This document shows positions 25,115 to 63,789 of a stretch of DNA of 64,000 bases, piece after piece. The stretch's first letter is position 1, and each line of letters opens with the position of its first letter. Source of the DNA: a phage; the sequence record PX441839.1. The stretch is one strand, 5' to 3'. The notes under the pieces were generated by a model, which was given only the letters and a program-made list of their open reading frames with translations, had not been told where the DNA came from and did no database searches. Made by a program: the position numbers and the translations under genes.

Positions 25115-27613
25115 ATGATACCTTTCCCATTATTAGGTGGAAAATCACCAACTCCACCACCGCCACTTCCAAAGGGCGTTTCTGGGTACTCAGGAACTAC
25201 CTACATAGGTGAAGATGGTGAAACTTGGTCTTGGAACAGGCAACTGGAGAGATGGATTAAAAAAGATCCGTTTCCAGTTGACGAAGGGCATCCTGAACAC
25301 TTCATGGTGGGGCCTGCAAAGATAGGCACAGATGGTTCTTTCCGATACTTCAATACTGTAACCAACGCTTGGGAAGATGTTCCTAACGGGAGCACCTTGG
25401 GGATGGTCCCTCTGACCCTGACAGATGAAGGCGTAAACATAGGGACATCGGTATTTGTAGAGTATCCCATTTATCAATCCGCTGGGTATGCCGTAGGTCT
25501 TGGAGGGTTCGCAAGACTGCTTGGGACGGAGGTACTGGGAAGACCAGATCTTATGGACCTGTACCTTATAGGAAGAAGAGGGGATTTCTTTTCACCTTCT
25601 CCTGCAAACCCTGACTCCACCAACGCAATTCTCGTAATTCGAAATGTTAAAAGGGATAGGGTGTGGAATACTTACCTGAACATGGTTGTGGAAACAAGTG
25701 ATGGGGAGATGTGGGCTTGGGGAATGAACTTCTATAATCAGTACGGCCCTTGGATAAGAAGCGGAGTAACAAGTTCCAGTCAACCACACATGAAGATAAA
25801 CCCATTCTCTAAAATATCTGATTTTCCAGTACCACCTGAGAAAATAAAAGATATCTTCCCCGGTGTAACAATGGTCATAGTTGCAGACACTGACGGGAAA
25901 TTCTGGTCCAAAGGGATTAACATTGGTCAGTTTAACGATATTGATGACCAAATTAGGACAGCCTGGGTAGAGATACCCGCAGATAGGTTCCCAGGGTTTA
26001 AAAAGTTTTATCGGAGTCTTAACGGAACAGGTGCCGCCAATGATCTTGCTTACACCAACTGCGTTTGGTATTTGACAGATACAGGGATAAGACATTTTGG
26101 AAATGTGTATGGAGTGATGGACGGTTCCCCACTTGTATCTGCAACAACTAGGGATCTCCCTGACAGTAAAGTTCACTCAGCCCCTGTAGGATTGCCTGAA
26201 AGGAATGATGAGCCTAAAATAGTGAGTTTTTCACTGGCCAGATCTTCTGACTATATCCTTATTGCTGTTTGGTATGATGACCCCGAAGAGATGTATGTTG
26301 CCTATCCTACTTCTGGACTTATTTGGGACCACGCAGATGGAGTAACGTATGGGAGGAGATTCAATAAATCCTCAGCCCCTGTAGGGAAGCATAGGAACCC
26401 CATACTGGACTTCAATAAAGAGGCCACCCTTATAACGGGGTTTGATGGAAAATTCTATGCTTCTGGGACCCCAAGTGTAAATAACGGGCTATACTCAAGA
26501 ACCAGCCCAACCACTTTTATCGACCAGAAGATGCCATCCTCTCTCGTTTATCAGGTTGAGCTATCCGACTCTGTAAACGGAAAAACTCAACTGTTGAGAA
26601 ATGATAGGCGTTCTTTAATGATAGCCGACCTTTCGGGAGGAAGCAACTACTTTGGAAATGGAACTTTCTGGAAACCAACTGCAACGATTAAGTGGCCTGA
26701 CTATCCAGACGCAATTCCAATAGTGTTCAAGAATGATGGTGTCACTATCTCGGGATCTGCTGAAAGGGTAGATACGTTTTGGGGGTGGAATGTTAGCAAC
26801 TACAACACTGTCAGCAGTACAGCCGGAGACCAGTACGGTGCTCCCAGTGGGGATGCTGTGCATGTCTCAGGGGAAGGGCACCTTACAATCTGGAAAGATG
26901 ATAGCAGTATCCTTGTTGGTGGTTACAACATAGGTGGAGTGTTTGGTGCTTTTAACCAGTGGAAGCAACCACAAGGTGCTGGAAGGTGGGTAGGCACAGT
27001 AAGAGAGTCTTTTACTGGCACATCGACAGTAAGCTGCGGAACCACTATTGCTTGGGATGGAAAAGATCATTACATATTTGGCAAAAACTACTGGGATGTT
27101 GCAAACGGACAACCAGTAATAAAGTTCAGTTCCTCTGCACCTGTAAAATGGAACAGTAAACAGGGATACCCGAACCTCCCTAATTTTATAAAATGGATTC
27201 CTGCAATTATGGGATATTCTGATGACGAGGGTTCTTTGCAACAACCCTTCTTTATGTATCGGGGTACTGACGGTCTGTTTTATGCTGCGGGTAGCAATAC
27301 AACAGGTGCCTTGGCGACAGGGACCCCACCTGAGACAAGGGATGAGCAAAGATGGACTTTTGAGGTAATGAAGGGATCTGAGGTGTTTGTTGGTAAAAAT
27401 GTTAAGGTTTACCACGGACACGGAAATACCTCTTGTTTGTTGTTCGCTTGCGAGGGAAAGGTGTACGGTGTTGGATTACCTAACAGTATGAAATGGAATG
27501 ACACCGGAACCATCCCTGACCCGTTCTTCCCTGGTTTCAACAGAAGGCTTAATGAAATCACCTACCTGATGGATTTGCCGGATGTTATCTATACCCGACC
27601 AATAGAAGAATAA
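25115..27613 (+). CDS. RCC1-like beta-propeller repeat protein (candidate distal fiber/receptor-binding protein)
   Basis: 832 aa; GAGGAG RBS; at least 5 repeats of [DG].G..[WYF]..G.N..G type (EMWAWGMNFYNQYG, KFWSKGINIGQFND, KFYASGTPSVNNGLY, LFYAAGSNTTGALATG, KVYGVGLPNSMKWND); last gene of the plus-strand operon. Confidence 0.6.
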   Translation: MIPFPLLGGKSPTPPPPLPKGVSGYSGTTYIGEDGETWSWNRQLERWIKKDPFPVDEGHPEHFMVGPAKIGTDGSFRYFNTVTNAWEDVPNGSTLGMVPLTLTDEGVNIGTSVFVEYPIYQSAGYAVGLGGFARLLGTEVLGRPDLMDLYLIGRRGDFFSPSPANPDSTNAILVIRNVKRDRVWNTYLNMVVETSDGEMWAWGMNFYNQYGPWIRSGVTSSSQPHMKINPFSKISDFPVPPEKIKDIFPGVTMVIVADTDGKFWSKGINIGQFNDIDDQIRTAWVEIPADRFPGFKKFYRSLNGTGAANDLAYTNCVWYLTDTGIRHFGNVYGVMDGSPLVSATTRDLPDSKVHSAPVGLPERNDEPKIVSFSLARSSDYILIAVWYDDPEEMYVAYPTSGLIWDHADGVTYGRRFNKSSAPVGKHRNPILDFNKEATLITGFDGKFYASGTPSVNNGLYSRTSPTTFIDQKMPSSLVYQVELSDSVNGKTQLLRNDRRSLMIADLSGGSNYFGNGTFWKPTATIKWPDYPDAIPIVFKNDGVTISGSAERVDTFWGWNVSNYNTVSSTAGDQYGAPSGDAVHVSGEGHLTIWKDDSSILVGGYNIGGVFGAFNQWKQPQGAGRWVGTVRESFTGTSTVSCGTTIAWDGKDHYIFGKNYWDVANGQPVIKFSSSAPVKWNSKQGYPNLPNFIKWIPAIMGYSDDEGSLQQPFFMYRGTDGLFYAAGSNTTGALATGTPPETRDEQRWTFEVMKGSEVFVGKNVKVYHGHGNTSCLLFACEGKVYGVGLPNSMKWNDTGTIPDPFFPGFNRRLNEITYLMDLPDVIYTRPIEE

Positions 27614-27621
27614 CAACCAAT

Positions 27622-27653
27622 AAAAAGGCTCCCGAATGGGAGCCTTTTCTTTT
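27622..27653. terminator. bidirectional rho-independent terminator between convergent operons
   Basis: AAAAAGGCTCCC-gaat-GGGAGCCTTTTCTTTT, A-run on one side and T-run on the other, between the + gene ending 27613 and the - gene ending 27659. Confidence 0.7.
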
Positions 27654-27658
27654 ATGTA

Positions 27659-28858
27659 TTACAGGACATAAATCACGTGGTTAGGATATTGAAGCCCTAC
27701 CGGAGCGAAGGGGATGTCATCATCGAAATCCATAACATCTGGGGTGTAGTCCAGATGACCATCATCGCTTACCGGAACTTGAGGATTAGTATCCTGAGGT
27801 TTTTGTTCCAGTTGAGGTTCAGGGGCTTTTTCTGGAGACGCGTCTTTCCGAACAAGGTCTTCTGTCGCATTGATGAATCGGAAGGTTGTTTCCACATTCT
27901 CAATAAACTGATCAATACCTTCTTGACTGTGTCGAGCAGCCAAGATACCGGATTGGCCCAGACGAGCACCAAACGCATAATCATCCATACCTTTGAACTC
28001 TTCCCGCAGCTTGGCCTTGATGGTATCCATAGCTTTCAGAACCTGCACCACAATAATTTGCTGATCGACGATAGCTGCATTTGGGAACATTGCATCTGTG
28101 ATAGTCAGTGCGTTGCCTAAACGAATCGGCAAGTCATCCTTTCCACCTTTACGGGAACCACCTGCACCACCTGCACCTTTTGGACCATAAGCCTTGAAAG
28201 CACTGATTGAACCATCAGCCGCCCGCTGACCAGCCAAACGACCACCCTCTTGGATCTGGGAGAGTTGCTCGTCTGACAGCTTAACGGTAACATCGCCATT
28301 ATCTGTCTTCACTACAACGTCTGAGCCGCTCACAGAGACGATTTCTCCGTAAACCTTAGTGGTTGCACCACCTGCACCTTGAGAGCCTCCCTGAGGTGTC
28401 TGAGAGCCTTGCGGAGCTACATCTCGAGCACCAGATGCATCGGTAATTTTAATTTTGTTCTTTTTACCCTCGGTGGAGGTTCGTTCATTACCCTCTCGGT
28501 CTTTGTAATATTTAACCTGCACTGGTAGACGAATCTTCATGCCTGGTTTAAGGCTTACATATTTGTCACCTTCTTTGATCTGGAACTGATCTTCGTATTT
28601 CAAGTTCTTAACTTCACCTTCTCCAAAAGAGATCCAAGCTGAATCTTCACCTTCTTTCAACAGGATAGAATAGCGATGGGTAGACTTGATAGTCTTACCT
28701 GCATTTGGACCCTTGTTGATGTGGGTGATTTTAGGACTACCGTCCTCATTGATACGTTTGATATTGATACGTTCAATTGTTCCAGCGGCGACGTGTACAG
28801 TCACATCATTAACAGCATCATAAACAGAGTTAACAACTTGAATTTTAACTTCGGACAT
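27659..28858 (-). CDS. hypothetical protein (Gly-rich linkers; internal DDDIPF motif)
   Basis: 399 aa; contains DFDDDIPF, which resembles the SSB acidic tail motif but is not at the C-terminus; function unassigned. Confidence 0.55.
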   Translation of the reverse strand: MSEVKIQVVNSVYDAVNDVTVHVAAGTIERINIKRINEDGSPKITHINKGPNAGKTIKSTHRYSILLKEGEDSAWISFGEGEVKNLKYEDQFQIKEGDKYVSLKPGMKIRLPVQVKYYKDREGNERTSTEGKKNKIKITDASGARDVAPQGSQTPQGGSQGAGGATTKVYGEIVSVSGSDVVVKTDNGDVTVKLSDEQLSQIQEGGRLAGQRAADGSISAFKAYGPKGAGGAGGSRKGGKDDLPIRLGNALTITDAMFPNAAIVDQQIIVVQVLKAMDTIKAKLREEFKGMDDYAFGARLGQSGILAARHSQEGIDQFIENVETTFRFINATEDLVRKDASPEKAPEPQLEQKPQDTNPQVPVSDDGHLDYTPDVMDFDDDIPFAPVGLQYPNHVIYVL

Positions 28859-28889
28859 TTATTTCTCCTTCGGAATTAAGCCTCGTTTG

Positions 28890-28925
28890 AGGCCGGAACA
28901 ACATATTATCACAAATACTTAGATT
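28890..28925 (-). promoter_or_regulatory. putative promoter (TTGCAA ... TGaTAATAT) for the 27659..28858 gene
   Basis: Minus-strand TTGCAA, about 16-nt spacer, TG-extended TAATAT upstream of the AAGGAG RBS. Confidence 0.35.
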
Positions 28926-28931
28926 TGCAAC

Positions 28932-29306
28932 TTACAAGTAGACACGTTGGACTTCTTTGTCTGCCTTTTCGAACATCATGTTTGCCATGTTAATATCCTT
29001 GATCACCACCTCTGTAATCTCGTCCGGACGAAAAGCCTTAAGTGACCGTTTAAAGATGATAGTCGGATCTTCACATGGATCACCTGATGTGTCAAACAAT
29101 TTCACCAGCATCTTAACAGGAACTTGACAAGACACCTTTCCCCCATAGTTGATTGCATACGCTGCGCCGACCTCTGCCTGACGGTCTCCCAGTTCATACA
29201 CCAAATTCAGGTTTACATATTTACAACCTTGACCTGCCGTTATGTTCTTTGTTGCAGAGATGCAGTTCCAACCTGGTTCAATAAAGGTGTTGTCAAAAAT
29301 GCTCAT
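28932..29306 (-). CDS. hypothetical protein
   Basis: Start moved to the ATG of MSIFDNTF (AAGGAG RBS lies inside the longer track ORF). Confidence 0.5.
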   Translation of the reverse strand: MSIFDNTFIEPGWNCISATKNITAGQGCKYVNLNLVYELGDRQAEVGAAYAINYGGKVSCQVPVKMLVKLFDTSGDPCEDPTIIFKRSLKAFRPDEITEVVIKDINMANMMFEKADKEVQRVYL

Positions 29307-29371
29307 GGTGAAATCTCCTTTCATTAAGTTATGGGTCTATTATATAAGACCCACCTCAATTAAGTCAACAC

Positions 29372-29728
29372 TTAAATACTTTTCTCAAAGCCTTCCGCTT
29401 GGAAGTAGGCTGTTTTCTCAGAGGTCTCAATTGAGAAACTTACCTGGGACAGTTCAGCAGCCAAGTGAGCAGCAATCTGTTTTGCCATGTGGACAATCAT
29501 ACCTTCTTCTTTTGGGAAGCGAGGGTACTGGATAAGTCGCACAGTAAACCCCTTTTCCATCCCTCCCGTATAGATATAGTCAGTTTTAGTAAGCTGAATA
29601 CATCCTCGCTCCGCATGGGTAAGGTACTTCCTAAGAATATGACGAGCAAAGTCAATATCCCCTGCCATGTGGATCGTCACATAGAATGTTTTCTCGGTTG
29701 CCTTTTGAACGAAATTTACATTAGCCAC
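29372..29728 (-). CDS. hypothetical protein
   Basis: 118 aa; GTG start immediately after the upstream TAA. Confidence 0.5.
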   Translation of the reverse strand: MANVNFVQKATEKTFYVTIHMAGDIDFARHILRKYLTHAERGCIQLTKTDYIYTGGMEKGFTVRLIQYPRFPKEEGMIVHMAKQIAAHLAAELSQVSFSIETSEKTAYFQAEGFEKSI

Positions 29729-30112
29729 TTATTTTCTCCCCTTCTTACGGTGATAAACTCCACGTTTGGACAGAGGAATTTCCTCTGCATCTCTTCCATC
29801 AACACCATCTTCACCAGGTTCACCTTGAGGACCCATTGGACCTGCTGGTCCCATTGGCCCCATAGGTCCTACAGGTCCAGTGACAACACGAATGTCTTTA
29901 GGTTTGTACAGAGAATAACCCAAGCATCCAAACCAACCGATAAGTGTAATTACGCTCGGAGGCAAAAGGAAGAAGATAACAGTAAAGACAGAGATCATCC
30001 ACTTATTCCTGTGATCCTTCTTCCATGCGATAATTATTGGGGAAAAACTAATTGCCAATAAAATTAACAGAAAAACAAGACCGAGAGTGATGGCAGCTTC
30101 TGCAATTATCAT
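29729..30112 (-). CDS. membrane protein with C-terminal collagen-like repeat
   Basis: Two hydrophobic helices, then VTGPVGPMGPMGPAGPMGPQGEPGEDGVDG (about 9 Gly-X-Y triplets). Confidence 0.55.
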   Translation of the reverse strand: MIIAEAAITLGLVFLLILLAISFSPIIIAWKKDHRNKWMISVFTVIFFLLPPSVITLIGWFGCLGYSLYKPKDIRVVTGPVGPMGPMGPAGPMGPQGEPGEDGVDGRDAEEIPLSKRGVYHRKKGRK

Positions 30113-30390
30113 TAACGAAGACCCTCTTTGATTTTAAGTTCAATCAACCCTGCATCCAGGGTATACATGTATCCAGTGTTATCCCGAAAGTAACAAAGGA
30201 CTCCCTTGGGTTCGGATTTTCTTACTATGACCCGACCCCTTTGATAACCAGGTTGTGTTTCACAAACCTTGTACAGTTCCTGAATACGGGAAGGCAGAAT
30301 AGTATGAGAATTCTTGTACTTATCCTCACCTTCTTCCAGACACCCTGTCAAAAGTACAGAGCACAGTAGTGCAATAATTAACTTTTTCAT
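30112..30390 (-). CDS. putative lipoprotein
   Basis: Start at MKKLIIALLCSVLLTGC (signal peptide with lipobox LTGC); ATGA overlap with the upstream small ORF. Confidence 0.6.
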   Translation of the reverse strand: MKKLIIALLCSVLLTGCLEEGEDKYKNSHTILPSRIQELYKVCETQPGYQRGRVIVRKSEPKGVLCYFRDNTGYMYTLDAGLIELKIKEGLR

Positions 30391-30563
30391 GCGCAGAATG
30401 CCGCCACAATTAGTGAAAAGGGCCACACGATCCCGAAAATTACAGAGGGTCCTTTGTCAATTCTGCAAAATCGACGATAGAATAGTCGCCCTGCTCCAAC
30501 ACTGATCAGGATATAGAGTAAAGATACAAGTAACTCAAGTGCATATAATGTTAAAAAATTCAT
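30387..30563 (-). CDS. small two-helix membrane protein (not in the ORF track; holin-like topology)
   Basis: 58-aa ORF MNFLTLYALELLVSLLYILISVGAGRLFYRRFCRIDKGPSVIFGIVWPFSLIVAAFCA; AAGGA RBS; stop overlaps the lipoprotein start. Confidence 0.45.
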   Translation of the reverse strand: MNFLTLYALELLVSLLYILISVGAGRLFYRRFCRIDKGPSVIFGIVWPFSLIVAAFCA

Positions 30564-30565
30564 AA

Positions 30566-30943
30566 TCAGATTCCTTTTCTTTCTCTGCGTTTACGGCGGA
30601 TATCCTCTTCAACCTCTACCTCAGCCTTGTCGATAATCTCGTATACGGACGGAACTGATTCAGATGGGGAAAACATCTTGTGCAGGTTCCTGACCATCAT
30701 TACCAACTTCCCCCTTACCTTGAAATCATATCTCCAAGATCTAAAGTGGAAGCAATCATGACGCCATTGGAACATATAGCATATCTCTTTTGCACGGTTA
30801 CGAGTAACACCCAGTAAGTTTGCAAACTCTCCATGAGGATCTCCATTTGGATCTCCAAGAATATATGCTGTTGCCCAATGCTTCTTCGCCAAGTTGTACT
30901 CTTCAACCGTCATGTTTACTTTCGTGTTCATATTGCCCTCCAA
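30566..30943 (-). CDS. hypothetical protein
   Basis: 125-aa ORF, co-oriented and tightly packed. Confidence 0.5.
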   Translation of the reverse strand: MEGNMNTKVNMTVEEYNLAKKHWATAYILGDPNGDPHGEFANLLGVTRNRAKEICYMFQWRHDCFHFRSWRYDFKVRGKLVMMVRNLHKMFSPSESVPSVYEIIDKAEVEVEEDIRRKRRERKGI

Positions 30944-30995
30944 GATACTCTACTCCAAGATTATGGGGAGTATAACGCCCCTTGTCAACAATTAC

Positions 30996-31592
30996 TTAAT
31001 CACAACTGCAAGATGACCCTGAGTCACAGGAAGAATAGCTGTCTGAACCACCGTAGCTGGACGAAGAACTATACGATGAAGTGTAGTTGCAATTGTCATC
31101 ACTGCGGTAAGAACTTGAACCAGACGTCACGATTGCAGTGGAAATACCTGCAACGGTGGCGATATTCAAAATATCATCACTATCCTGGTGAACTGGACGA
31201 GATGGACTTGAAACCGACATTGGACGACCATTTGATCGTGACCGCTTAATGAACTCTTTCTTCGCCTTAGGTGGTAATTTACGACCTTTGGCGTAAGCTG
31301 GGAGTTCAACTTCTTTCAGTTTATCATTCAGAGTCTTACCCTGTTTAATTACAACTTTGGAATCATCCTGTACGATCTCCGCGACCTTGACAGTGTTCTC
31401 TTTGGTATTGACTGCTGTGACCACCTCTTTGTCACCCAGAGGCTTGTCGATAGGTTTGGTTCCCACTTCAACCATTCGAACATTAACATTGGTAGGTTGT
31501 TTACTGATGTATTCATCAACCTTCACTTCGTCAATTTCAACCTTGGAGGAAGAGAACAGACCTTTAAACCAAGATACCAGCTTCTTAAACAT
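30996..31592 (-). CDS. hypothetical protein with Ser-rich C-terminus
   Basis: 198 aa; C-terminal low-complexity S/Y/G/C/D tail. Confidence 0.5.
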   Translation of the reverse strand: MFKKLVSWFKGLFSSSKVEIDEVKVDEYISKQPTNVNVRMVEVGTKPIDKPLGDKEVVTAVNTKENTVKVAEIVQDDSKVVIKQGKTLNDKLKEVELPAYAKGRKLPPKAKKEFIKRSRSNGRPMSVSSPSRPVHQDSDDILNIATVAGISTAIVTSGSSSYRSDDNCNYTSSYSSSSSYGGSDSYSSCDSGSSCSCD

Positions 31593-31602
31593 ATTGTTTC
31601 TC

Positions 31603-31824
31603 CTATTCGCTAATGACTACTAGTTGAGTAATTCCGATCAGACCTGCACTAAACAGATCGTCAATTGCAGCTTGCCCGTCAAGACCTTCTTCATAACATT
31701 CTTTGAGGGTATCATTGTCAAGCAGCCATTTGTTTGCCACGTCCTCTGACGTGAAGACCAAATCTTGCTGACCAATATCCCATTCAGACCAAATAGAGTA
31801 CATTATTTTGCACTCCCGTTCCAC
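31603..31824 (-). CDS. hypothetical protein
   Basis: 73-aa acidic ORF. Confidence 0.4.
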   Translation of the reverse strand: MERECKIMYSIWSEWDIGQQDLVFTSEDVANKWLLDNDTLKECYEEGLDGQAAIDDLFSAGLIGITQLVVISE

Positions 31825-31997
31825 ACTGCGTCCACAACACCCTTGAGTCCAACACTATCTACAGCTTGGATAAGCTCAACAGCGCCCCAAATCATCACAC
31901 CAATACCTACAACGGTCATCGCAAAAACAATACCGATACCGATCTTGATTGCATTTTTTGTCCGGTTAAAGGATTTGTTGAAATCTGAACTAATCAT
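31803..31997 (-). CDS. small membrane protein
   Basis: 64 aa with a hydrophobic helix (IGIGIVFAMTVVGIGVMIWGA). Confidence 0.4.
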   Translation of the reverse strand: MISSDFNKSFNRTKNAIKIGIGIVFAMTVVGIGVMIWGAVELIQAVDSVGLKGVVDAVWNGSAK

Positions 31998-32327
31998 TTA
32001 ATATCTCCCATTATCAAATTCATTTCTTGCCCATTGGACTGCCTTTATGAGCACATCTCCGTGACAAGGTTGCGGTGAGCAGAAGCAGACTAGGTCTTTG
32101 CCCTCCAACTCAAGAAGATCACCAATTGTTATTCTACCTTCTTTTATCTGAGTCCACAACCACTTTCTGTATCTTTCGATTGTGGCCCCTCTCGGCTCAT
32201 CATTTGACAATTTGAAAGGGTTGGCAAATCTCGATTGGAGTAGCCCGAAGTGGGGCATTCTCCTCCCGATATAAACTGCATTCTCTGGTATGACCTTCCC
32301 TAAGTGGTAGAAGTTCAATACCTTCAT
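31998..32327 (-). CDS. DUF4326-like protein
   Basis: Start at internal ATG (MKVLNFYHLGK) with GAAGG RBS; motifs AVYIGRR, FANPF, RYRKWLW, LVCFCSPQPCHGDVL recalled as typical of DUF4326. Confidence 0.5.
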   Translation of the reverse strand: MKVLNFYHLGKVIPENAVYIGRRMPHFGLLQSRFANPFKLSNDEPRGATIERYRKWLWTQIKEGRITIGDLLELEGKDLVCFCSPQPCHGDVLIKAVQWARNEFDNGRY

Positions 32328-32328
32328 A

Positions 32329-32664
32329 TTACTTACCTTCACGGTCCTTGTCAATAATTTTCTGTGCCAGATCGGATAGCTTGTTGCCAATGAATGGCAT
32401 CTTGTCCAGCAATTTTGTGGATTTTCTCTCCAGATCATAAAATAGGTCAGTGGCCTTGTCGAAGATCCATCCTCCAAACTTACCGATATAAACAAAGACA
32501 AGGGCCAGTGTCCTATGGGGATTAATAACCAGCAAGGCAAAGAGTAAACCTGCCATCTTACTGTGGAATTTGACCTCTTTCCAAAAATGTTTTAACTTAG
32601 TCACCATATAGTTGAGTCTCCGGAATAATATCTTCAATAGAGTCGTCCCAAACAACACAGCCAT
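32329..32664 (-). CDS. hypothetical membrane-associated protein
   Basis: ORF with a hydrophobic segment (MAGLLFALLVINP...); exact start uncertain. Confidence 0.4.
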   Translation of the reverse strand: MAVLFGTTLLKILFRRLNYMVTKLKHFWKEVKFHSKMAGLLFALLVINPHRTLALVFVYIGKFGGWIFDKATDLFYDLERKSTKLLDKMPFIGNKLSDLAQKIIDKDREGK

Positions 32665-32998
32665 AATGTCGGTACGGGTTCTCTCCGTAAGTGTTTGGCG
32701 ACACCCAAACTTTGTTTATGTCTGCTGTAACAAGGTTTCCCTTATCTACGTGCATGTAGAAGTGACGGTAAACGGGGATTGGGGTGATTTCCCCTTTCCC
32801 GCTATCACAGCACCAAACTTGATGCTCTTTCAGTTCAACGGGATCTTCATCTTCGTCAATGGACAGTTGTAGGTCAGGGTAGAATCGTAAAATTCGCATT
32901 TCTGCATCTTCTACGGACAACCCATCCAATGAGTTCAGAAACTCCTCGAAATCATCCATTGCTTTTTCATTAATGGATGGACACTGTTCACTCATCAT
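32597..32998 (-). CDS. hypothetical acidic protein
   Basis: Start set at internal Met (MMSEQ) to avoid a 62-nt overlap. Confidence 0.45.
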   Translation of the reverse strand: MMSEQCPSINEKAMDDFEEFLNSLDGLSVEDAEMRILRFYPDLQLSIDEDEDPVELKEHQVWCCDSGKGEITPIPVYRHFYMHVDKGNLVTADINKVWVSPNTYGENPYRHYGCVVWDDSIEDIIPETQLYGD

Positions 32999-33428
32999 CT
33001 TCTTCCTTGCTCCCCTCGACCTTCGTGAATGAATACTCTGTACGTACAACCTCTTTGGAGGTCATGTTTACATAGTAGGCGTACTCCATCCAGTCAATCT
33101 CTTCTGGATTGCCGTGTTTTCCGCCGCCGTACCAATATGTCCAAGATACCCAACCGAACGGTGTTTCACGGGCAACTTGATCACTTTCATAATGGCGACT
33201 CATTTCTGGGAGAAGATTGGTTACAATTCCTGAGCTTCGGAAATCGTATTGAACTTCCCACAGGCTATCTCCATCCACACCCTCAAACTCATTATCTTCA
33301 ACCTTATCCCAGAGTTCGGCAATAGCTTCTTGGTTCATATTACGGATATCTTCCCGTGATACAATACCCTCTAAAACCTCTGCAAGAATTTCTGCACGGA
33401 TTGCGTATTCAGCGGTAACTTTACTCAT
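32988..33428 (-). CDS. hypothetical protein
   Basis: 146-aa ORF. Confidence 0.5.
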   Translation of the reverse strand: MSKVTAEYAIRAEILAEVLEGIVSREDIRNMNQEAIAELWDKVEDNEFEGVDGDSLWEVQYDFRSSGIVTNLLPEMSRHYESDQVARETPFGWVSWTYWYGGGKHGNPEEIDWMEYAYYVNMTSKEVVRTEYSFTKVEGSKEEDDE

Positions 33429-33441
33429 TTTATCTCCTCAA

Positions 33442-33663
33442 TTAAAAGTCAAACTGCTTTGTCAACTTCGCCATAGATTTCTTGTATGAGGGGTGCAGTC
33501 GATAATTACACCCCTTCTCCACACACCAGTCGCTCGCCTTGTTTCTAAGAGCAATTAAGCCGCACCAAGCGCAAACTTGCTTACCTGCATTTTTGTCCAG
33601 ATAGAAGTGGTGACGCTCGTAATGGTATTCTTCCTTCTGGCTCTTGTCAATCTTTTTTACCAT
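33442..33663 (-). CDS. small Cys-rich (zinc-ribbon-like) protein
   Basis: 73 aa with CAWCG ... C..EKGC Cys pairs. Confidence 0.45.
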   Translation of the reverse strand: MVKKIDKSQKEEYHYERHHFYLDKNAGKQVCAWCGLIALRNKASDWCVEKGCNYRLHPSYKKSMAKLTKQFDF

Positions 33664-34325
33664 CCGAATTTCTCCGTTGGAAGGTAAACCTGTTGTTGGT
33701 TACGAAGAACCAAGCGTAGGTCTGTTTGAGGCTCAAGGTAGTCCGTCTCGGTCACACGAATAAGGTATCGCCAACCTGGAGCACGGGCTTGCTGTGCCGT
33801 GTGGATTTCCCACCAATCCCATTCAACAACCTGACCATCAGGTGCGTTGTAAGCGTCAATAAACCCTTGCTGTTCCATCTCTGCGACTTGAGAACTTATA
33901 CCCGCATAAAGGTTTGGAACATCAACGTTAAGGTTCAAGTTACGACTGTGGATAAACTTCGTAGGGCAATCCCCACCCACAACCAAAAGATGATACCTCG
34001 GCGAAGATGCTTGCTCCTGCATGTGGATATTGGGTTCACCTTTTGCAGGGGACATCTTTCCACCACGAGGGACACCATCCGTATGCCAACCAGGGATGGC
34101 GGGAATCATACCCGGCATGAGCATATGGGTCTTTACGTCCACCACAATATGTTTTCGATCACCGTGCAGATTCATGGCTTGTAATGCTGCTCTTGTTAAG
34201 TCCCCTCCGAAACGAAAGGCGTCATCAAAAGATGCATTCCAAAGACCTTGTGTGTTCTTAATATCATCCTGTGAGGGTTTTTCAATTTTGTTTCCGAATT
34301 TTACTACACCACGGTTAAATTTCAT
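33657..34325 (-). CDS. hypothetical protein (possible 2OG-Fe(II)/PhyH-like oxygenase)
   Basis: Contains WHTDG, reminiscent of the HxD iron-binding motif of PhyH-type dioxygenases; weak, motif-only. Confidence 0.4.
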   Translation of the reverse strand: MKFNRGVVKFGNKIEKPSQDDIKNTQGLWNASFDDAFRFGGDLTRAALQAMNLHGDRKHIVVDVKTHMLMPGMIPAIPGWHTDGVPRGGKMSPAKGEPNIHMQEQASSPRYHLLVVGGDCPTKFIHSRNLNLNVDVPNLYAGISSQVAEMEQQGFIDAYNAPDGQVVEWDWWEIHTAQQARAPGWRYLIRVTETDYLEPQTDLRLVLRNQQQVYLPTEKFGW

Positions 34326-34557
34326 CTTTTCCTCCAAATATCGCACAAGCTAGTGATTTATCTATGTGGCCCATTACATTGTGGCCTTCTTTCTTTAAGC
34401 ATTTGCTGCATATTCTGTAGATATTAGACTCTTTTGACGAAGGTGTCAAGTGGGCAGGTGTGTCATGCTCCCTTACAAAATGGACAACTTCGGTTATATG
34501 CCATTGGTGGCTACATACTTTTTTCTTTTGACGTTTAAAGGGCCACATATTAACCAC
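34315..34557 (-). CDS. small Cys/His-rich protein
   Basis: 80 aa with C..W.H ... CSKC motifs. Confidence 0.4.
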   Translation of the reverse strand: MVNMWPFKRQKKKVCSHQWHITEVVHFVREHDTPAHLTPSSKESNIYRICSKCLKKEGHNVMGHIDKSLACAIFGGKDEI

Positions 34558-34735
34558 CTATCAACTTAAAGCTGCCATATACAGACGTTTCGAAGACAAC
34601 CTGAGTTTGAACACCCTCATCGTTGATTACTTCAACCATCTTCTTGTTTGGAGACATGACGAGGATCTTGTATTCCTTACCAGTTGTGAATAATCCCCAA
34701 TCTGCATAGTGGCTGTTGGTGCATAAAAGCTTCAT
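34550..34735 (-). CDS. hypothetical protein
   Basis: 61-aa ORF in the co-oriented array. Confidence 0.4.
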   Translation of the reverse strand: MKLLCTNSHYADWGLFTTGKEYKILVMSPNKKMVEVINDEGVQTQVVFETSVYGSFKLIGG

Positions 34736-34739
34736 ATTC

Positions 34740-34958
34740 TTATACTCCTGGAGGTAAAGTTACGCCGCCTACGCTACGGCAGTTTCCCATACACTGGGTA
34801 TTTGAACGTGCCAGTTGTTCTTCCAGTTCGTCATTCTTGTGCTGTTGGTACGCCATGAATTGTAACATTTCCCACATCTTGTCCATTAGGTGGTCTTTCT
34901 TTAAAGTCTTCCAGTATTTACGGAAGGCCACTTCATCCTCTTTGGTTAATGGTTTCAT
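34740..34958 (-). CDS. hypothetical protein
   Basis: 72-aa ORF. Confidence 0.4.
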   Translation of the reverse strand: MKPLTKEDEVAFRKYWKTLKKDHLMDKMWEMLQFMAYQQHKNDELEEQLARSNTQCMGNCRSVGGVTLPPGV

Positions 34959-35062
34959 TTGTTATCCCTCTTTCGTTTGGTATGGGATCATTATGAGGGT
35001 TCTGAGCAAGGAAGTCAACACCTTTCTGCAAATAAAAAGGCCACCCGAAGGTGGCCTTAATT

Positions 35063-35455
35063 TTATTCCAGTTCTGCCAATTGTTTGCGGATTTCTTCCG
35101 GAGTTAATTTCTGTAACTCACGGGCCTCTGCATCTGCCAATTGCTGCAACAGAGCTTCACGCTTCTGTCGTTTTGCCGTTTCTTCCTGCTGTTTGGCAAT
35201 CTCCTCTTTGCGGACCTTGATCACATGTTTAACAATTTCCATCGCCAGTTCAAGGCGTTCGTCCACAGAAGTCTTGTCATCAACAAAAGATTTTTCCCCT
35301 GCGGCCTTGATTTGCTTGTCAACAGATACTGCGATGGAGTTCAGGCTAACATTGTTACCTTTCAGCGGAAGTTGCCATAAATCTTCAACGGTGATCAGGC
35401 CACGCTGGGTTTCAAAACGCAGTTTTGCACGGGATGCTTTTTCAAAAATAGACAT
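35063..35455 (-). CDS. hypothetical coiled-coil protein
   Basis: 130 aa, K/E/Q/A-rich helical C-terminal half. Confidence 0.5.
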   Translation of the reverse strand: MSIFEKASRAKLRFETQRGLITVEDLWQLPLKGNNVSLNSIAVSVDKQIKAAGEKSFVDDKTSVDERLELAMEIVKHVIKVRKEEIAKQQEETAKRQKREALLQQLADAEARELQKLTPEEIRKQLAELE

Positions 35456-35495
35456 ATTTGTTCTCCTCAGTAATAAGTGATTTCGTGTTAATTAT

Positions 35496-35511
35496 GGGGC
35501 CTTTCGGCCCC
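35496..35511 (-). terminator. GC hairpin without U-tract (possible terminator or processing site)
   Basis: GGGGCC-tttc-GGCCCC between the 35520..37538 gene and the 35063..35455 gene. Confidence 0.35.
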
Positions 35512-35519
35512 GTTGTCAA

Positions 35520-37538
35520 TTAAAATTTAATTTTCAGTGTTCGGGTGAAAGAACCAGACACTTTCACAGTAACTTCGTTTCGCACGGTATCCGAGAAACC
35601 AATACCTGCCAACTGACGATCAGACTTGGCAACCTTCATCTTAGCTGCAAGGTGTTCAAACACCTTACCGTGATCTTTAGCCAAATCGTTACGAAGATAC
35701 TCATTATAGAATCCACGAGTACCCTCTGGATTGGCACAGCCCTCAAGGATGAAGAACATGTGCTTGTTTCCTACTCCTTGACCATCCCAATGGTTAGGAG
35801 AGTTCATCACCATAGAAACTTTCTGGAACTGCTCTGTGGCGATACCCCACACTTCCTTGGACTGCTTGGTGCTGCCAATGGAGTCAAGAACCTTGATCCC
35901 GTGGATTCGAGAATACTCGAACGACAACACCTTGACAGAACCTTTCTCACTTACAGCCTTGTCATAAACAAACTGTGTGGAGTTTCCACGGAAATCCAGT
36001 TCAACAACAAAACCTTCACGGTCACGAAGACGTTTGTTAAAGTTTTGAACCTCTACGCGATACACACCCTCAACCATACGGTTCATGTTAGGCCATGTAA
36101 TGTTCTCAACCGGATTGAAAGCATCAGATTCTCCGTATGCGTTCATATCGACATCCAGTTCAGCACCCGTGTTACCAAAACGGTTGCCAAAGTACACACG
36201 ATTCCCGTTAGGTTCAATCAGGTACAGGTCAAGGTCATCTGGGTTAAACCACGACAGAGATACACGCAGTTCACCAGAAACACTACCACCCGCCGCCTTT
36301 ACACGTTCCTTGATAGAGTCTGTAACTTCACCATTGTATGACCAAGAGAAGTTGTTATCCCATTTCAGCATATTAGGTGCATCTGGGTATACAGGTGCCA
36401 CTAACGTCATCAGATTTGGAACATGACGGTTTTCTACCAGAACTTCCAGAGCCTCTGCTTTAGGCAGGACGTTGGAAATAAAGTCTGCAATGCTGATCTC
36501 TTCTGCCTTGGCAGGTCCAGCCTTGGGCTTCTTAGCCGTGGCTAACAGGTCATCAAATGCATTCATCGCCTTCTTAGCTGAACGATCTGCAAACAGAACG
36601 TTATTGATAGTCAGGTCTTCTGCAACAGCATATCGACGAGGCAGTGAATCCATCATGCCCAACTCTTCAACTTTTTCCTGAGCCTTCTTGATCATGGCTT
36701 CTGTAACCAGCGCTGTCGGACGCTTATAGTTTGCCGGGGCCATTACATTTTCCCAACGCTTAACCGCAGTTTCCAGATCCATGCCGTCAGAAAGATCTTG
36801 CAGCAGTGTACCTACCGCAGTGTTTCGGAACTTACCGAAAGCACCAAGTTCTTTACTCTTGGTCCATAAGAACGCATCACGGGACTCATCATTGTCGATA
36901 TTATCAAACTCACGTTTGATTGCAACAAACTTCTCCAGTGTACCTTTGGCTTCATTGCCACGATACAGGGAGTTCTGAGCAATTAGTTCTAAAGCGGTTT
37001 CAGCAGAATCTGTGGTCAGTTCTTTCAGAGAACGTTCCAGAACTTGCTTGTTTCCACGGCTATCGTTTAACTTGGTCGGGATCTTGTCACCTCGCTCAAC
37101 GTACTGGGACGGGAGAACCGCATGGAAGTGATTGAAGATGATAGTCTTCTCGTCACCAGCGCCTAAAATAACAGACCGCTCAGTACCAACCTTCGCCTGG
37201 AAGTGCAGAAACTCGTCAGTTACCTTTGCAGACTTAATAACATCCGCCATGGTATCAACCACCACCTGGTAGTAGCTTGGTACGGAGATGTCCCAAATAG
37301 TTACCATCTTGCCATCAACGAAAGTTACAACTCGACCAAGGTCACGAATAAACTGCTTGCAGCAGTTGCAATCATATTCACGTCGCTCTTTGTAGATCAG
37401 GTTGGTTCCTTCTGGGAAAGAATCCAGGTAGGTGTTCCAAACAAGATCCTTATCCAAGGCCACCTCAAACAGGCCCGTCTTAGCCATCTTGGAAAGTTGT
37501 TTCTGCATTGCTGTTACAAAACCGTGGAAGTTGCTCAT
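35520..37538 (-). CDS. large hypothetical protein (672 aa)
   Basis: Long uninterrupted ORF with RBS; N-terminal Cys cluster (YDCNCCKQF); no family recognised. Confidence 0.6.
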   Translation of the reverse strand: MSNFHGFVTAMQKQLSKMAKTGLFEVALDKDLVWNTYLDSFPEGTNLIYKERREYDCNCCKQFIRDLGRVVTFVDGKMVTIWDISVPSYYQVVVDTMADVIKSAKVTDEFLHFQAKVGTERSVILGAGDEKTIIFNHFHAVLPSQYVERGDKIPTKLNDSRGNKQVLERSLKELTTDSAETALELIAQNSLYRGNEAKGTLEKFVAIKREFDNIDNDESRDAFLWTKSKELGAFGKFRNTAVGTLLQDLSDGMDLETAVKRWENVMAPANYKRPTALVTEAMIKKAQEKVEELGMMDSLPRRYAVAEDLTINNVLFADRSAKKAMNAFDDLLATAKKPKAGPAKAEEISIADFISNVLPKAEALEVLVENRHVPNLMTLVAPVYPDAPNMLKWDNNFSWSYNGEVTDSIKERVKAAGGSVSGELRVSLSWFNPDDLDLYLIEPNGNRVYFGNRFGNTGAELDVDMNAYGESDAFNPVENITWPNMNRMVEGVYRVEVQNFNKRLRDREGFVVELDFRGNSTQFVYDKAVSEKGSVKVLSFEYSRIHGIKVLDSIGSTKQSKEVWGIATEQFQKVSMVMNSPNHWDGQGVGNKHMFFILEGCANPEGTRGFYNEYLRNDLAKDHGKVFEHLAAKMKVAKSDRQLAGIGFSDTVRNEVTVKVSGSFTRTLKIKF

Positions 37539-38102: not shown

Positions 38103-38128
38103 AAAAAACCGCCCCGAAGGGCGGTTTT
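38103..38128 (-). terminator. rho-independent terminator (end of the leader-family cassette)
   Basis: AAAAAACCGCCC-cgaa-GGGCGGTTTT; on the minus strand the hairpin is followed by a T-run directly after the stop of the 38131 gene. Confidence 0.65.
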
Positions 38129-49090: not shown

Positions 49091-49804
49091 TTATTGGTTG
49101 TGTAGGAAAACTGCCTTTGCCAAACCCCTTGGGGTAAGGGAGCGTATCAGTTTTGTACGTGCCGATTTACCACCTAACTTATTATGCTGCTCAGAATATC
49201 CCTGTGCGACACCGACAGGCGACTTCACTGGCATCTTGAACCCTTTCCCCGTCCAAAGGCATGTCTTCTTAGGATAAGCGTCACGAGCCTTAATGTACTC
49301 AGGGAAAAATGGATTCACATCATCCTCCGGTAAGTAACCACCATACTCATATGGGTGGAACTGGTAGTCAGATTTTCTCCATTTTGTTGCCAAAACACTT
49401 ACAGGGTTTTCTATCATGTAAGGGCAGTCGAAAACAAACTCTGCCAAGTATGCCGGAATTTTTGCAGTACGTACAGCATTTATTTGGAAAAATGGATCTT
49501 TTGCTGCTTTTCTTTTAAAGTGGGCTGCACCGCTCACCGCCATATCTGTGCAGGGAGGGAAGGCAAAGATAATATCTGGGTTTGGGATTCCCAAACTTTC
49601 AACATTCTCTGCCCACTCCATGTCAATCCACGCATCCACATACGTCACGTTCGGGTGATTAACTCTTACATTATCATACAATCCGTGGTCAGCCTCCTTA
49701 GCGTTGAAGCAGAAGCACAGGTGACCAGCTTTTGCCCAATCAAAGACCATTGCCCCAGATCCATCAAACAAAGACCAAACAACCTTTTTAGACATGCTTT
49801 TCAA
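49091..49804 (-). CDS. putative DNA (cytosine-5) methyltransferase-like protein
   Basis: Ordered motifs SLFDGSGA (motif I, F.G.G), FPPCTD (motif IV, PC) and IENPV (motif VI, ENV); short (237 aa) for a complete C5-MTase. Confidence 0.45.
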   Translation of the reverse strand: MKSMSKKVVWSLFDGSGAMVFDWAKAGHLCFCFNAKEADHGLYDNVRVNHPNVTYVDAWIDMEWAENVESLGIPNPDIIFAFPPCTDMAVSGAAHFKRKAAKDPFFQINAVRTAKIPAYLAEFVFDCPYMIENPVSVLATKWRKSDYQFHPYEYGGYLPEDDVNPFFPEYIKARDAYPKKTCLWTGKGFKMPVKSPVGVAQGYSEQHNKLGGKSARTKLIRSLTPRGLAKAVFLHNQ

Positions 49805-50165
49805 ACCCCAAGGTGGTTACCAATTGCTCGTAATCCCAAGTATCCAGGTATGCTTTCTCTCCATGTTTGGCAAAACCTCGCCACTTATTGGTTCGATACA
49901 GGAACCAAAGTTGTTTCGCAACATTCTTATCATCAACATACCCCAGCAGAAATGCCCAACGGTGGGTTGGAATGAGGCCAACAGCAATACGATTAAGTTC
50001 GTCCCATTGGTTTGTTTTCACATTAAAAACCCAAAGTCGTTTCCTGATCACCTCTTTACTTTTCAGGAGGTCACGTAAATGTTCTGCACGTTTAATCATT
50101 GTGTCGTGTACATTCGCGGCACGGATCAGTGTGTTTTTGTTAACTTCGATCAAGGTGTTACTCAT
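49788..50165 (-). CDS. hypothetical protein
   Basis: Start set at internal Met (MSNTLIEV). Confidence 0.45.
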   Translation of the reverse strand: MSNTLIEVNKNTLIRAANVHDTMIKRAEHLRDLLKSKEVIRKRLWVFNVKTNQWDELNRIAVGLIPTHRWAFLLGYVDDKNVAKQLWFLYRTNKWRGFAKHGEKAYLDTWDYEQLVTTLGFEKHV

Positions 50166-50406
50166 GTTCTTCCTCCTCCGCAATCTCACCAATGGCAACA
50201 AACTGATCATGGTCAAGAGATACCCATGCACCAAGGATTCCGTTGTGTACCCAGAAGGTGAACATGTCACCGCTTTCGTCTACGGCGCAGTAATTTACAC
50301 CATCTTCGTCCTCGTATTCATTAATTACTTCAAGGAAGGACCCTACCCGTAAGACATTACTTAACGTTACCTTTATTTTCACCTTTGCCTCCAAAATCAT
50401 GTTCAA
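50158..50406 (-). CDS. hypothetical protein
   Basis: 82-aa acidic ORF. Confidence 0.4.
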   Translation of the reverse strand: MNMILEAKVKIKVTLSNVLRVGSFLEVINEYEDEDGVNYCAVDESGDMFTFWVHNGILGAWVSLDHDQFVAIGEIAEEEEHE

Positions 50407-50415
50407 GTTTAATGA

Positions 50416-50673
50416 TTATACTATCTTGTCACCAATGATGCAAGGAACATACACAGACCCGCCATTACTGTTGGTAATCTTTACTTTTGGGGATGAGGTC
50501 ATCAAAATATCCTCCTCATCCACCCCAAACCAGTCTTCACCATATTCCAGTAAGGCATTCAGTGTGCGAATTACGTAGATAGCTTCCTCTGTACCACAAT
50601 CGTAGAGATCCTCTTCACTCTCTTGTCGTTCAATGGCAGTACGTTTGTCCAGTTTCACAAAATAACGGCTCAT
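50416..50673 (-). CDS. hypothetical protein
   Basis: 85-aa ORF. Confidence 0.4.
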   Translation of the reverse strand: MSRYFVKLDKRTAIERQESEEDLYDCGTEEAIYVIRTLNALLEYGEDWFGVDEEDILMTSSPKVKITNSNGGSVYVPCIIGDKIV

Positions 50674-51127: not shown

Positions 51128-51187
51128 TTTGTCCTCTCCTTATTTGATAGGGTAAGTATAAGTGAGATTTTGCCCCATGTCAAATGA

Positions 51188-51214
51188 AAAAAGGCCCCCG
51201 AAGGGACCTTTTAT
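51188..51214 (-). terminator. putative terminator after helicase exon 2
   Basis: AAAAAAGGCCCC-cgaa-GGGACCTTTT, imperfect stem with flanking A and T runs. Confidence 0.4.
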
Positions 51215-54507: not shown

Positions 54508-54528
54508 TGTTTGCTCCTTCTTTTATTA

Positions 54529-55583: not shown

Positions 55584-55585
55584 AA

Positions 55586-57640: not shown

Positions 57641-57698
57641 GAGGACTCCTAAAATAATAAAGGCCCAGTGTACTTAACTGGGCCAGTGTGTCAATAGC

Positions 57699-62779: not shown

Positions 62780-63786
62780 TTCTTTCCTCGCTTCTTAAGT
62801 TTGTTGTGTCCATTACCACGGCGAATCTTCACCTGTTTCCAATCTTTTACTGGCTTTTCCACCTCGGCAATAGCGGAAAATTCATCAATGATATTTTTGC
62901 CAATTGGTTTACCAGCCTCCAGCAGTGCAACTTTATTGTATTTGGACATAAGGGTTTTTACCTTCTCAGAATCTAAAATTTCAACATTAGACAGATCCAT
63001 GTCCTCTTTCCTCGCACCATACATTGTTTGGTACATTGCCGTCTTTAATGCAGTTTTTGTCCCAAAGTAAATTTCAACCTTGTACTCAGAAGCCAGCCTA
63101 ATCAACCTCTTCATTACAGAGTCTATATTGTTAATTGAGGATGCACAACCCGGTACTGACTCTACAAAAATAGGTGTCATGGGCCAACCTGTGTACTCAA
63201 CAGTTGCTTTTGTTCTTTCCAGCATACACTCTAACCTTGTAAATTCATCTGGGTCTTCGACAAGGTCCGTAATTTTGAAAATAACAGGATGCTTGGTGGG
63301 AATATCCTGCATACATAGCTTCTCCAGTTCTTCCCAATCAACGCCGCTCTCCATGTCTAAATACAAATCACCATCCTTTGGGATCGACAATGTCTTTCCA
63401 GATGGGGATGTATTAGGGAGATAATTATAGTTAAGCCGACCAGTTGGTCTACCGTCCCGTTTTTTAATGAAGTCAGCGTAGAGTTTATCACCATCCTCTA
63501 ACACCTCATCAAACCAGACAAAACTGTTTACACCCAACTGATCGGTATCAGAAGTGAACTCAGATCCGGGGGTAGCGATAGCCCTTACATTTTTCAAATG
63601 ATCACGAAAGAAAGGATCTGGAATAAAGAATTCCCTGCTTAGAAACATTCTTGATTTATTCTCATCTTCGTGGGTTGAGATGAGGGATTCTTCAAAATCA
63701 TGACCTTTGGATTTGTAATTCATAAGTTTTAATTCCTTGTTTTGTTTTGATAAGGGGATATTACTCCCCTTTCTGACTCGTGTCAA
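62776..63786 (-). CDS. hypothetical protein
   Basis: 336-aa ORF; no family recognised. Confidence 0.5.
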   Translation of the reverse strand: MTRVRKGSNIPLSKQNKELKLMNYKSKGHDFEESLISTHEDENKSRMFLSREFFIPDPFFRDHLKNVRAIATPGSEFTSDTDQLGVNSFVWFDEVLEDGDKLYADFIKKRDGRPTGRLNYNYLPNTSPSGKTLSIPKDGDLYLDMESGVDWEELEKLCMQDIPTKHPVIFKITDLVEDPDEFTRLECMLERTKATVEYTGWPMTPIFVESVPGCASSINNIDSVMKRLIRLASEYKVEIYFGTKTALKTAMYQTMYGARKEDMDLSNVEILDSEKVKTLMSKYNKVALLEAGKPIGKNIIDEFSAIAEVEKPVKDWKQVKIRRGNGHNKLKKRGKK

Positions 63787-63789
63787 CAG

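Follow-up and report, generated by a model that had tools for sequence, protein, structure and literature searches.

A palindrome enclosing the -10 hexamer of a predicted early promoter in an rV5-like phage: a probable PeSL-type stem-loop

Promoter-early stem-loops (PeSLs) have been described in the T4-type phages RB49/phi1, T4/PST and KVP40/nt-1 (Arbiol et al. 2010, PMC2839356; Comeau et al. 2014, PMC4122927). Each combines a sigma70 consensus promoter, with AT-rich DNA upstream and a Shine-Dalgarno (SD) sequence and ATG downstream, with a stem-loop that is often of the form polyG...polyC, lies mostly between the -35 and -10 hexamers or overlaps the -10, and has been noted to include G-T pairs (PMC2839356). 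The stem-loop has been proposed to act as a terminator or attenuator of upstream transcription. In one construct, with the stem-loop cloned outside its native context, that of PeSL211/210 reduced lacZ expression to roughly the extent that rrnB T1 did, and promoter activity was found by lacZ fusion for RB49 PeSL206/205 (PMC2839356). PeSL cassettes also mediate gene shuffling (PMC2839356; PMC4122927), and both PeSL-PeSL recombination and mini-circles have been demonstrated in RB49/phi1 (PMC2839356).

Among Certrevirus and rV5 phages, sigma70-like early promoters are densest in stretches of short hypothetical genes (PMC7344957; Kropinski et al. 2013, PMC3606486), and the Certrevirus early-promoter consensus is given as AAAA(N3-4)TGTTGAC(N17-19)TATAAT (Buttimer et al. 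2020, PMC7344957). The searchable portions of these two reports give hexamers and list terminators separately, and do not mention stem-loops inside promoters. PeSL-type cassettes as such are thus already known; in Vequintavirinae, for which we found no report of PeSLs in the searchable literature, they have apparently not yet been reported.

Here we consider a palindrome within a 64,000-nt stretch of sequence record PX441839.1 (the window, to which all coordinates refer unless another phage is named). The window belongs to a Vequintavirinae (rV5/CR3-like) myovirus whose closest record is Salmonella phage SSBI34. Similarity between the two is mosaic, at 96.5% over 27506-37000 and 80-85% over 49-63 kb, and megablast against SSBI34 gave nothing matching left of 27506. 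Overall, the palindrome is very probably functional. It is probably, though far from certainly, the stem-loop of a PeSL-type promoter/stem-loop cassette, of the subclass that overlaps the -10, which would attenuate or terminate read-through transcription or mark its 3' end.

Promoter and palindrome upstream of the DUF7325 gene

The palindrome is surrounded by a block of small, function-unassigned genes transcribed leftward, and the two minus-strand genes that flank it, at 28932..29306 and 29372..29728, are as they were originally described. The downstream gene (124 aa, ATG at 29306) encodes a DUF7325 protein (PF24011, phrog_16220) whose orthologues begin MSIFDN. The upstream open reading frame (118 aa) matches phrog_4848 at 5e-40 and is 97.5% conserved in SSBI34, yet it is unannotated there; it is a real gene. 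Searches of seven neighbouring proteins against Pfam, and of six of these against PHROGs, identified no DNA-binding family or regulator, and most of the proteins are without any annotation. An Rfam search of 28700-30000 returned no matching family at E <= 1.

On the plus strand, 29332-29353 reads TGGGTCT-ATTATATA-AGACCCA, a perfect 7-bp inverted repeat around an 8-nt AT-only centre. The original prediction was right about this repeat but placed it at 29327-29348, an interval that actually reads AGTTATGGGTCTATTATATAAG and lies 5 nt to the left of the true site. Its view that the short gap between the two genes holds a regulatory element distinct from a canonical U-tract terminator stands, and the coding strand indeed has no U-tract after the hairpin, the tail being UAACUUAAUG; the promoter context, however, was missed.

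In the orientation of the coding strand (minus), the intergenic sequence is TAA-GTG-TTGACT-TAATTGAGG[TGGGTCT]TA-TATAAT-[AGACCCA]TAACTTAATG-AAAGGAGA-TTTCACC-ATG, with the palindrome arms in brackets. By its sequence, the AT-rich centre of the palindrome is the -10 hexamer of a predicted sigma70 promoter for the downstream gene. This promoter, TTGACT-18-TATAAT, agrees with the sigma70 consensus at 11 of 12 positions and has a spacer 1 nt above the optimum. The TAA stop codon of the upstream 118-aa gene (29372..29374, minus strand) lies 3 nt before the -35 hexamer TTGACT (29363..29368, minus strand), which was recognized as a consensus match. An AT-rich stretch upstream of the -35, GAGAAAAGTATTTAAGTG (29369..29386, minus strand; 13 of 18 bases A/T), runs across the end of the upstream gene, and its last three bases are the GTG of TGTTGAC. 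The 5' arm, TGGGTCT (29347..29353, minus strand), occupies the end of the promoter spacer, and the 3' arm, AGACCCA (29332..29338, minus strand), doubles as the promoter discriminator; both contain GGG/CCC rather than pure runs. Between them, the -10 hexamer TATAAT (29339..29344, minus strand) supplies six of the eight loop bases (29339-29346), and G29354 can pair with U29331 as an extra G.U that extends the stem. The promoter is followed at the usual distance by the ATG and a Shine-Dalgarno region, AAAGGAGA, read from the sequence at 29314..29321 (minus strand).

Standard sigma70 geometry predicts a transcription start at ~29332, 7 nt after the -10. With a start at this position, the promoter's own transcript would be without the 5' arm and hence could not form the hairpin, which would be carried only by RNA arriving from upstream. 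As RNA, the hairpin has 8 bp and a folding energy of -12.8 kcal/mol, and it starts 18 nt past the stop codon of the upstream gene. As single-stranded DNA it is weak, at -5.7 and -6.1 kcal/mol.

The bare palindrome, taken without its context, is unremarkable. Counting perfect 7-bp stems whose loops measure 3-10 nt, the window contains 69 distinct hairpin centres, compared with 29.9 +/- 5.3 in dinucleotide shuffles, so that a little under half of the window's 7-bp hairpins correspond to chance expectation; with loops of exactly 8 nt, the counts are 18 and 4.7. Judged in its promoter context, the palindrome is significant. When shuffling was confined to the spacer and the bases downstream, leaving the -10 hexamer intact, 0.4% of shuffles folded as well as -12.8 kcal/mol (p = 0.004), and the fold has a z of -2.8 against shuffles. 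A genome-wide search for further copies, as proposed along with the original prediction, was run over the window and 91 kb more of SSBI34 (~155 kb), allowing up to two mismatches or a 6-bp core at spacing 4-14. No second copy beyond chance level was found; the one match with two mismatches, at 42149, lies within coding DNA and is itself chance-level.

Sister cassettes and the same site in relatives

Embedded hairpins recur at promoters across the early region of the window. In short promoter gaps, which measure ~58-66 nt from stop codon to ATG, a GC-rich embedded hairpin is present in all five of five. Sister cassettes, all on the minus strand, differ in both hexamers and arms. At 30932..30995, TGTTGACA-17-CATAAT has arms TACTCC/GGAGTA (30967-30972 and 30951-30956) that bracket the -10, and at 35456..35519, TTGACA-17-CATAAT carries GGGGCC-gaaa-GGCCCC within the spacer (35496-35511). 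At 57641..57698, the arms GGCCCAGT/ACTGGGCC of TTGACA-16-TACACT overlap the -10 and are followed by UUUAUUAUUUU, a U-run; at 63724..63789, AAGGGGA/TCCCCTT brackets the -10 of TGTTGACA-17-TAATAT. The long gaps (87-104 nt; 51214, 38130 and 35062) have a different arrangement, each of the three with a canonical terminator of stem, UUCG and U-run upstream of the -35 and no embedded hairpin. Promoter-like matches within coding DNA number ~19, and just one of them carries a stably folding GC-rich stem of at least 6 bp.

The same pattern of short and long gaps is found in CR9, which has three embedded-hairpin cassettes, and in the other early region of SSBI34, outside the window, which has at least eight. 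The SSBI34 modules there take the form TGTTGACG-ttggtTTATG-N6-7-TATAAT-N'6-7-CATAGacaaacgaaa, with stems of 10-12 bp whose outer pairs are constant from copy to copy and whose inner pairs vary yet remain complementary.

We applied the same promoter search and RNA folding to 20 annotated intergenic gaps of the RB49 hyperplastic region. Short gaps there contain hairpins that overlap the -10, such as GGGTGTAT-atca-ATACACCC and GGGAGTA-gtaaga-TACTCCC, as well as spacer hairpins of the form GGGGATC...GATCCCC; two long gaps have canonical terminators upstream and no embedded hairpins. In layout, RB49 and the phage of the window are identical.

To compare the palindrome's own site among relatives, the 95 nt preceding each DUF7325 orthologue were gathered from 27 loci in GenBank phages, IMG/VR, and metagenome and Logan contigs. 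A single-protein search of viral contigs contributed none of these loci, an alignment search contributed four viral and two metagenome loci, and tracing homologous proteins to their encoding contigs contributed 11 more. A -35/-10 pair stands at a constant distance from the SD in all 27 loci, the -35 being kept at the position of TTGACT in each. A hairpin that encloses or overlaps the -10 is present in several lineages, each with its own arms: TGGGTCT / AGACCCA in the window and SSBI34; GGGGCC / GGCCCC in the CR9 group (CR9 and contig loci L015/L017, L018/L020, L025 and L026); (G)TGGGGC / GCCCCA(C) in A7_1 and UPEC06 (34% protein identity); and CCGGCCA / TGGCCGG in ChuuTotoro and ABPH49 (31% protein identity). 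At every hairpin-bearing locus of these four lineages the fold beats its own shuffles (p <= 0.01), and the window and CR9 pair in different registers relative to the -10. As far as these comparisons go, what is conserved at the DUF7325 promoter site is pairing rather than sequence.

No hairpin accompanies a second promoter allele, TTGACA-16-TAAGAT, which is present in CR3, P7_Pc, POP15, PcCB7V, DU_PP_I and several contigs, including metagenomic ones, and F1M1E and KaOmega (-10 = TATACT) likewise have the promoter and no hairpin. Since many relatives keep the promoter without it, the hairpin would be useful but dispensable.

Substitutions within the stems bear on which molecule carries the structure. 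Four were seen: A>G in SSBI34, C>T in CR9, C>T in L018/L020/L025, and A>G at the inner pair in L025/L026. Each of the four leaves a G.U pair in RNA of the sense strand and a mismatch on the opposite strand; the SSBI34 transition thereby breaks the DNA dyad while the pair is kept in RNA. Such a G.U-only pattern is suggestive of an RNA role, with a chance of ~0.004-0.012 over these four events if one substitution in 3-4 would behave in this way. Consistent with this direction, 27 of 37 embedded hairpins fold more stably as sense than as antisense RNA (Wilcoxon p = 0.002, a significance overstated by the relatedness of the sequences). This asymmetry was measured by energy difference, as G.U counts in whole minimum-free-energy structures are uninformative when antisense folds add spurious pairs.

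Gene content also appears to change at the cassette. Certrevirus relatives are homologous at the DNA level only as far as 29306, the start codon of the DUF7325 gene, which adjoins the cassette. Among relatives the gene upstream of the cassette varies and the downstream DUF7325 gene is constant; the 118-aa gene of the window is located elsewhere in other phages.

Function of the hairpin and alternative explanations

In the PeSL-type explanation that we favour, the same bases would serve two purposes. As duplex DNA, a strong host sigma70 early promoter would start at ~29332 and express the DUF7325 gene, with the hairpin arms occupying the positions of the promoter that are free in sequence, namely the spacer end and the discriminator. 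Transcripts started upstream, for which the cassette at 30995-30932 is the nearest candidate and a likely source, would read through the 118-aa gene and reach the palindrome. In this RNA the arms would fold into the 8-bp hairpin, which would attenuate or terminate the read-through, or at least mark and protect its 3' end. In this way each block of small early genes would be insulated from transcription upstream and then transcribed anew from a promoter of its own.

The attenuator role is suggested by analogy with one published reporter assay of one RB49 PeSL stem-loop. The RB49 PeSL211/210 stem-loop is followed by UAUACUACAC and has no U-tract, and because the stem-loop that was tested shares this feature, a missing U-tract no longer argues against a terminator-like role. 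The original prediction had suggested that the palindrome could be an operator or processing site rather than a terminator; this preference is probably the reverse of the actual situation, given that a PeSL stem-loop without a U-tract cut read-through about as much as rrnB T1 (PMC2839356). As a counterpoint, the absence of a U-tract, the 8-nt loop and the short stem would make a weak intrinsic terminator by E. coli rules, and a consensus terminator scan of the window did not call the hairpin. A canonical Rho-independent terminator was ruled out by the absent U-tract.

The hairpin could instead be an RNA 3'-end barrier or processing mark, blocking 3'-5' exonucleases or guiding an endonuclease cut in the AU-rich leader and so stabilising the upstream message. 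Stable intercistronic hairpins without U-tracts are known from T4 early RNA. This possibility draws on the same sense-strand RNA evidence as the PeSL-type explanation and is compatible with all of the sequence evidence; a hairpin followed by the AU-rich single-stranded tail UAACUUAAUG and by no U-tract in fact fits it better than intrinsic termination. We nonetheless regard it as doubtful, given that the sole functional test in the PeSL family found a loss of downstream expression like that caused by a strong terminator (PMC2839356) and that no RNA family matched. At 7-8 bp the stem is also far too short for RNase III, which rules out a site for that enzyme. A role at the level of DNA, which could coexist with the PeSL-type explanation, would make the palindrome a recombination hot spot or the target of a structure-specific protein that shuffles cassettes, or would have GC clamps or an extruded hairpin tune promoter melting. 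The point at which Certrevirus homology stops, the swapping of the upstream gene next to a constant DUF7325 gene, and the recombination and mini-circles of RB49/phi1 (PMC2839356) all agree with such a role. It appears quite unlikely, however: with single-stranded DNA hairpins as weak as those calculated here, extrusion from a 22-bp duplex is unfavourable, and both the wobble-only substitutions and the stability of sense over antisense indicate RNA and not duplex DNA. Recombination, moreover, could use the homology of a whole 60-100 bp cassette, with no need for the dyad. A cruciform that exposes the -10 as a single strand is unlikely here, the DNA hairpin being ~ -6 kcal/mol, and only remotely conceivable for the 10-12 bp copies of SSBI34.

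An operator, the other function originally suggested, would make TGGGTCT-N8-AGACCCA the binding site of a dimeric repressor, of phage or host origin, that blocks access to the -10 and silences the DUF7325 gene. A perfect dyad over the -10 and discriminator is indeed a classical position for repression, and real operators are often single-copy and imperfect. The idea is nevertheless not supported and, in our judgement, very unlikely, because no second copy exists in the ~155 kb searched and no DNA-binding family was found among the neighbouring proteins, although the latter is weak evidence when most of these proteins are unannotated. The dyad is also broken in SSBI34, and orthologous and paralogous promoters differ in arm sequence, arm spacing and position relative to the -10. 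Variable inner stem positions stay complementary even so, a pairing that a protein site would not need. A multi-site operator was dropped when the copy search gave only the chance-level match at 42149. The final alternative is that the promoter is real and that the 7-bp complementarity between its spacer and discriminator is a functionless coincidence. The share of the window's 7-bp hairpins expected by chance and the many relatives with no hairpin at this site leave some room for this. It is highly improbable in light of the fold significance with the -10 fixed, the hairpins of different arm sequence at the same site in other lineages, and the presence of embedded hairpins in 5/5 short promoter gaps against ~1/19 promoter-like matches in coding DNA. 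We also considered a GC-rich discriminator alone, as in a stringent-type promoter, which would leave the spacer complementarity in several lineages unexplained.

A broader reading would unite the cassettes as one mobile regulatory family across unrelated enterobacterial myoviruses (Vequintavirinae and RB49-like Krischvirus), in place of sigma70 convergence, with the hairpin that holds the -10 in its loop as the core of mobility or of a structure-dependent switch. The hairpin might then be a recombination target, a site for a structure-specific protein, or a coupler of termination and re-initiation at the overlapped promoter. Two common features allow this reading, the extended sequence AAAGTTGTTGAC...TATAAT...CAT(A/C)..AAACGA and the placement of the hairpins, but we consider it rather improbable.

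For annotation, the PeSL-type explanation implies that short palindromes in rV5-like early regions are to be interpreted as components of promoter/stem-loop cassettes and not as operators. The cassettes would define gene-by-gene transcription units that are unannotated in current records; the SSBI34 record even omits the gene upstream of the palindrome. It would also extend PeSL-type cassettes beyond T4-like phages, lending support to the view that large lytic phages in general rely on compact modules of promoter plus attenuator to keep their small early genes insulated and to shuffle them. Stems ranging from 6 to 12 bp, together with the SSBI34 G.U variant, offer natural test cases for the effects of in-promoter hairpins without U-tracts on read-through and initiation. 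For phage engineers, the cassettes point to junctions at which genes can probably be inserted or swapped safely.

Comparison with described systems

Like canonical intrinsic terminators, the palindrome places a GC-containing RNA hairpin soon after a stop codon. It differs from them in its lack of a U-tract, its 8-nt loop and its stem of 7-8 bp, and canonical terminators do occur in the same phage, at 27622-27649, 35037-35058 and 38105-38128. Phage N4 provides another case of an inverted repeat at the promoter core, with promoters that are hairpins with 3-nt loops read by the virion RNA polymerase. The element described here has ordinary sigma70 hexamers instead, and this phage group has no RNA polymerase gene, as described for the relative CB7 (PMC7344957).

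Terminator-promoter overlap concatenates the tufB-secE and ribosomal-protein operons of bacteria (2019, PMC6735719). There, too, a hairpin that ends an upstream unit overlaps the next promoter, linking the expression of neighbours and limiting the sites at which DNA can be inserted. Those overlaps are single instances in housekeeping operons and involve ordinary terminators, in contrast to a repeated mobile cassette (PMC6735719). The palindrome's promoter, GTGTTGACT-18-TATAAT, also fits the Certrevirus early-promoter consensus (PMC7344957).

PeSLs are the closest match. The phages in which they were described are T4-like and the palindrome's phage is a Vequintavirinae (rV5-like) myovirus, and the palindrome copy departs from the PeSL type in its 18-nt spacer, its TTGACT in place of TTGACA, and its mixed arms TGGGTCT in place of a pure G-run. 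RB49 and the other early region of SSBI34 nevertheless have in common the leader motif CAT(A/C)..AAACGA after the -10. Both PeSLs and the window cassettes occur in many copies, clustered among small early genes of unassigned function, and the gene content beside the window cassettes also appears to vary. In both, an upstream stop codon in AT-rich DNA leads into a near-consensus sigma70 promoter and then an SD and ATG, with a GC-rich stem-loop in the spacer or over the -10 in which G-T pairs on the sense strand are tolerated. The palindrome cassette thus has the stop-to-SD/ATG layout, the promoter, the AT-rich upstream DNA, the stem-loop, the repetition and the RB49 architecture by which PeSLs are recognized.

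Promoter alleles and the transcription unit

Across the 27 loci compared at the orthologous site, two promoter alleles precede the same DUF7325 gene, TTGATT-16-TATAAT with a hairpin and TTGACA-16-TAAGAT without one, such that a weak -35 is paired with a consensus -10 or vice versa. The next downstream gap (28859-28931, minus strand) carries a promoter-like TTGCAA-16-TAATAT, followed 3′ by the hairpin GGCCTC-aaac-GAGGCT without a U-tract. This element would be a member of the subclass of promoter-early stem-loop (PeSL) cassettes with the stem-loop downstream of the -10. Certrevirus relatives possess an additional 61-aa gene at this gap, which is absent from the window. Further downstream, a strong bidirectional terminator (27622-27649; 12-bp stem with a U-run on each strand) separates the leftward early block from the convergent 832-aa gene, and the transcription unit containing the DUF7325 promoter ends there.

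Upstream genes and mosaic similarity to SSBI34

Directly upstream of the hairpin, a 118-aa ORF (29372-29728, minus strand) matches the PHROGs family phrog_4848 (5e-40) and is 97.5% conserved in Salmonella phage SSBI34, yet unannotated there. In total, 197 phage records hold a homologue, among them those of PVP-SE1-like, jumbo and Rhizobium phages, mostly at genome positions different from that in the window. The adjacent gene (29729-30112, minus strand) encodes a 127-aa protein with a weak superinfection-immunity (Imm_superinfect) membrane segment and a short collagen-like Gly-X-Y run, both below Pfam cut-offs; homologous neighbours are found in some relatives (L021, L025 and L031, all loci with a DUF7325 orthologue).

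Comparison of window segments 1-27505, 27506-37000 and 49107-63282 with SSBI34 revealed mosaic similarity, with 96.5% at 27506-37000 and 80-85% at 49107-63282. Megablast against SSBI34 gave no match in the 5.5 kb left of 27506, the region of the tail-fibre and 832-aa genes. Several indels separate these blocks of alignment, as at window 51673-52537, which corresponds to 5 nt in SSBI34.

Promoter cassettes of SSBI34 and RB49

Outside the window, the second early region of SSBI34 (plus strand, 28600-35900 of L033, which is record segment 100000-141095) contains a family of promoter modules, at least six in number, that share the arrangement TGTTGACG-ttggtTTATG-N6-7-TATAAT/CATAAT-N'6-7-CATAGacaaacgaaa. 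In each, a 10-12 bp stem encloses the -10, with outer pairs kept and inner pairs varying from copy to copy while retaining complementarity, and an A-rich tail follows the hairpin. Adjoining promoters instead carry a hairpin, CATAGGGCGAC-acaac-GTCGCCC, just 3′ of the predicted start.

Immediately 3′ of the -10, the motif CAT(A/C/G)..AAACGA occurs in 8 copies in this SSBI34 region and in 10 copies in the RB49 hyperplastic region (L034, record segment 105001-155000, minus strand), versus 0.6-0.9 expected; copies are strand-specific, and the motif is also present at window 34984. SSBI34 and RB49 belong to unrelated phage families, and their entire cassettes appear similar, combining CAT(A/C/G)..AAACGA with AAAGTTGTTGAC upstream, a likeness that could reflect either convergence or transfer.
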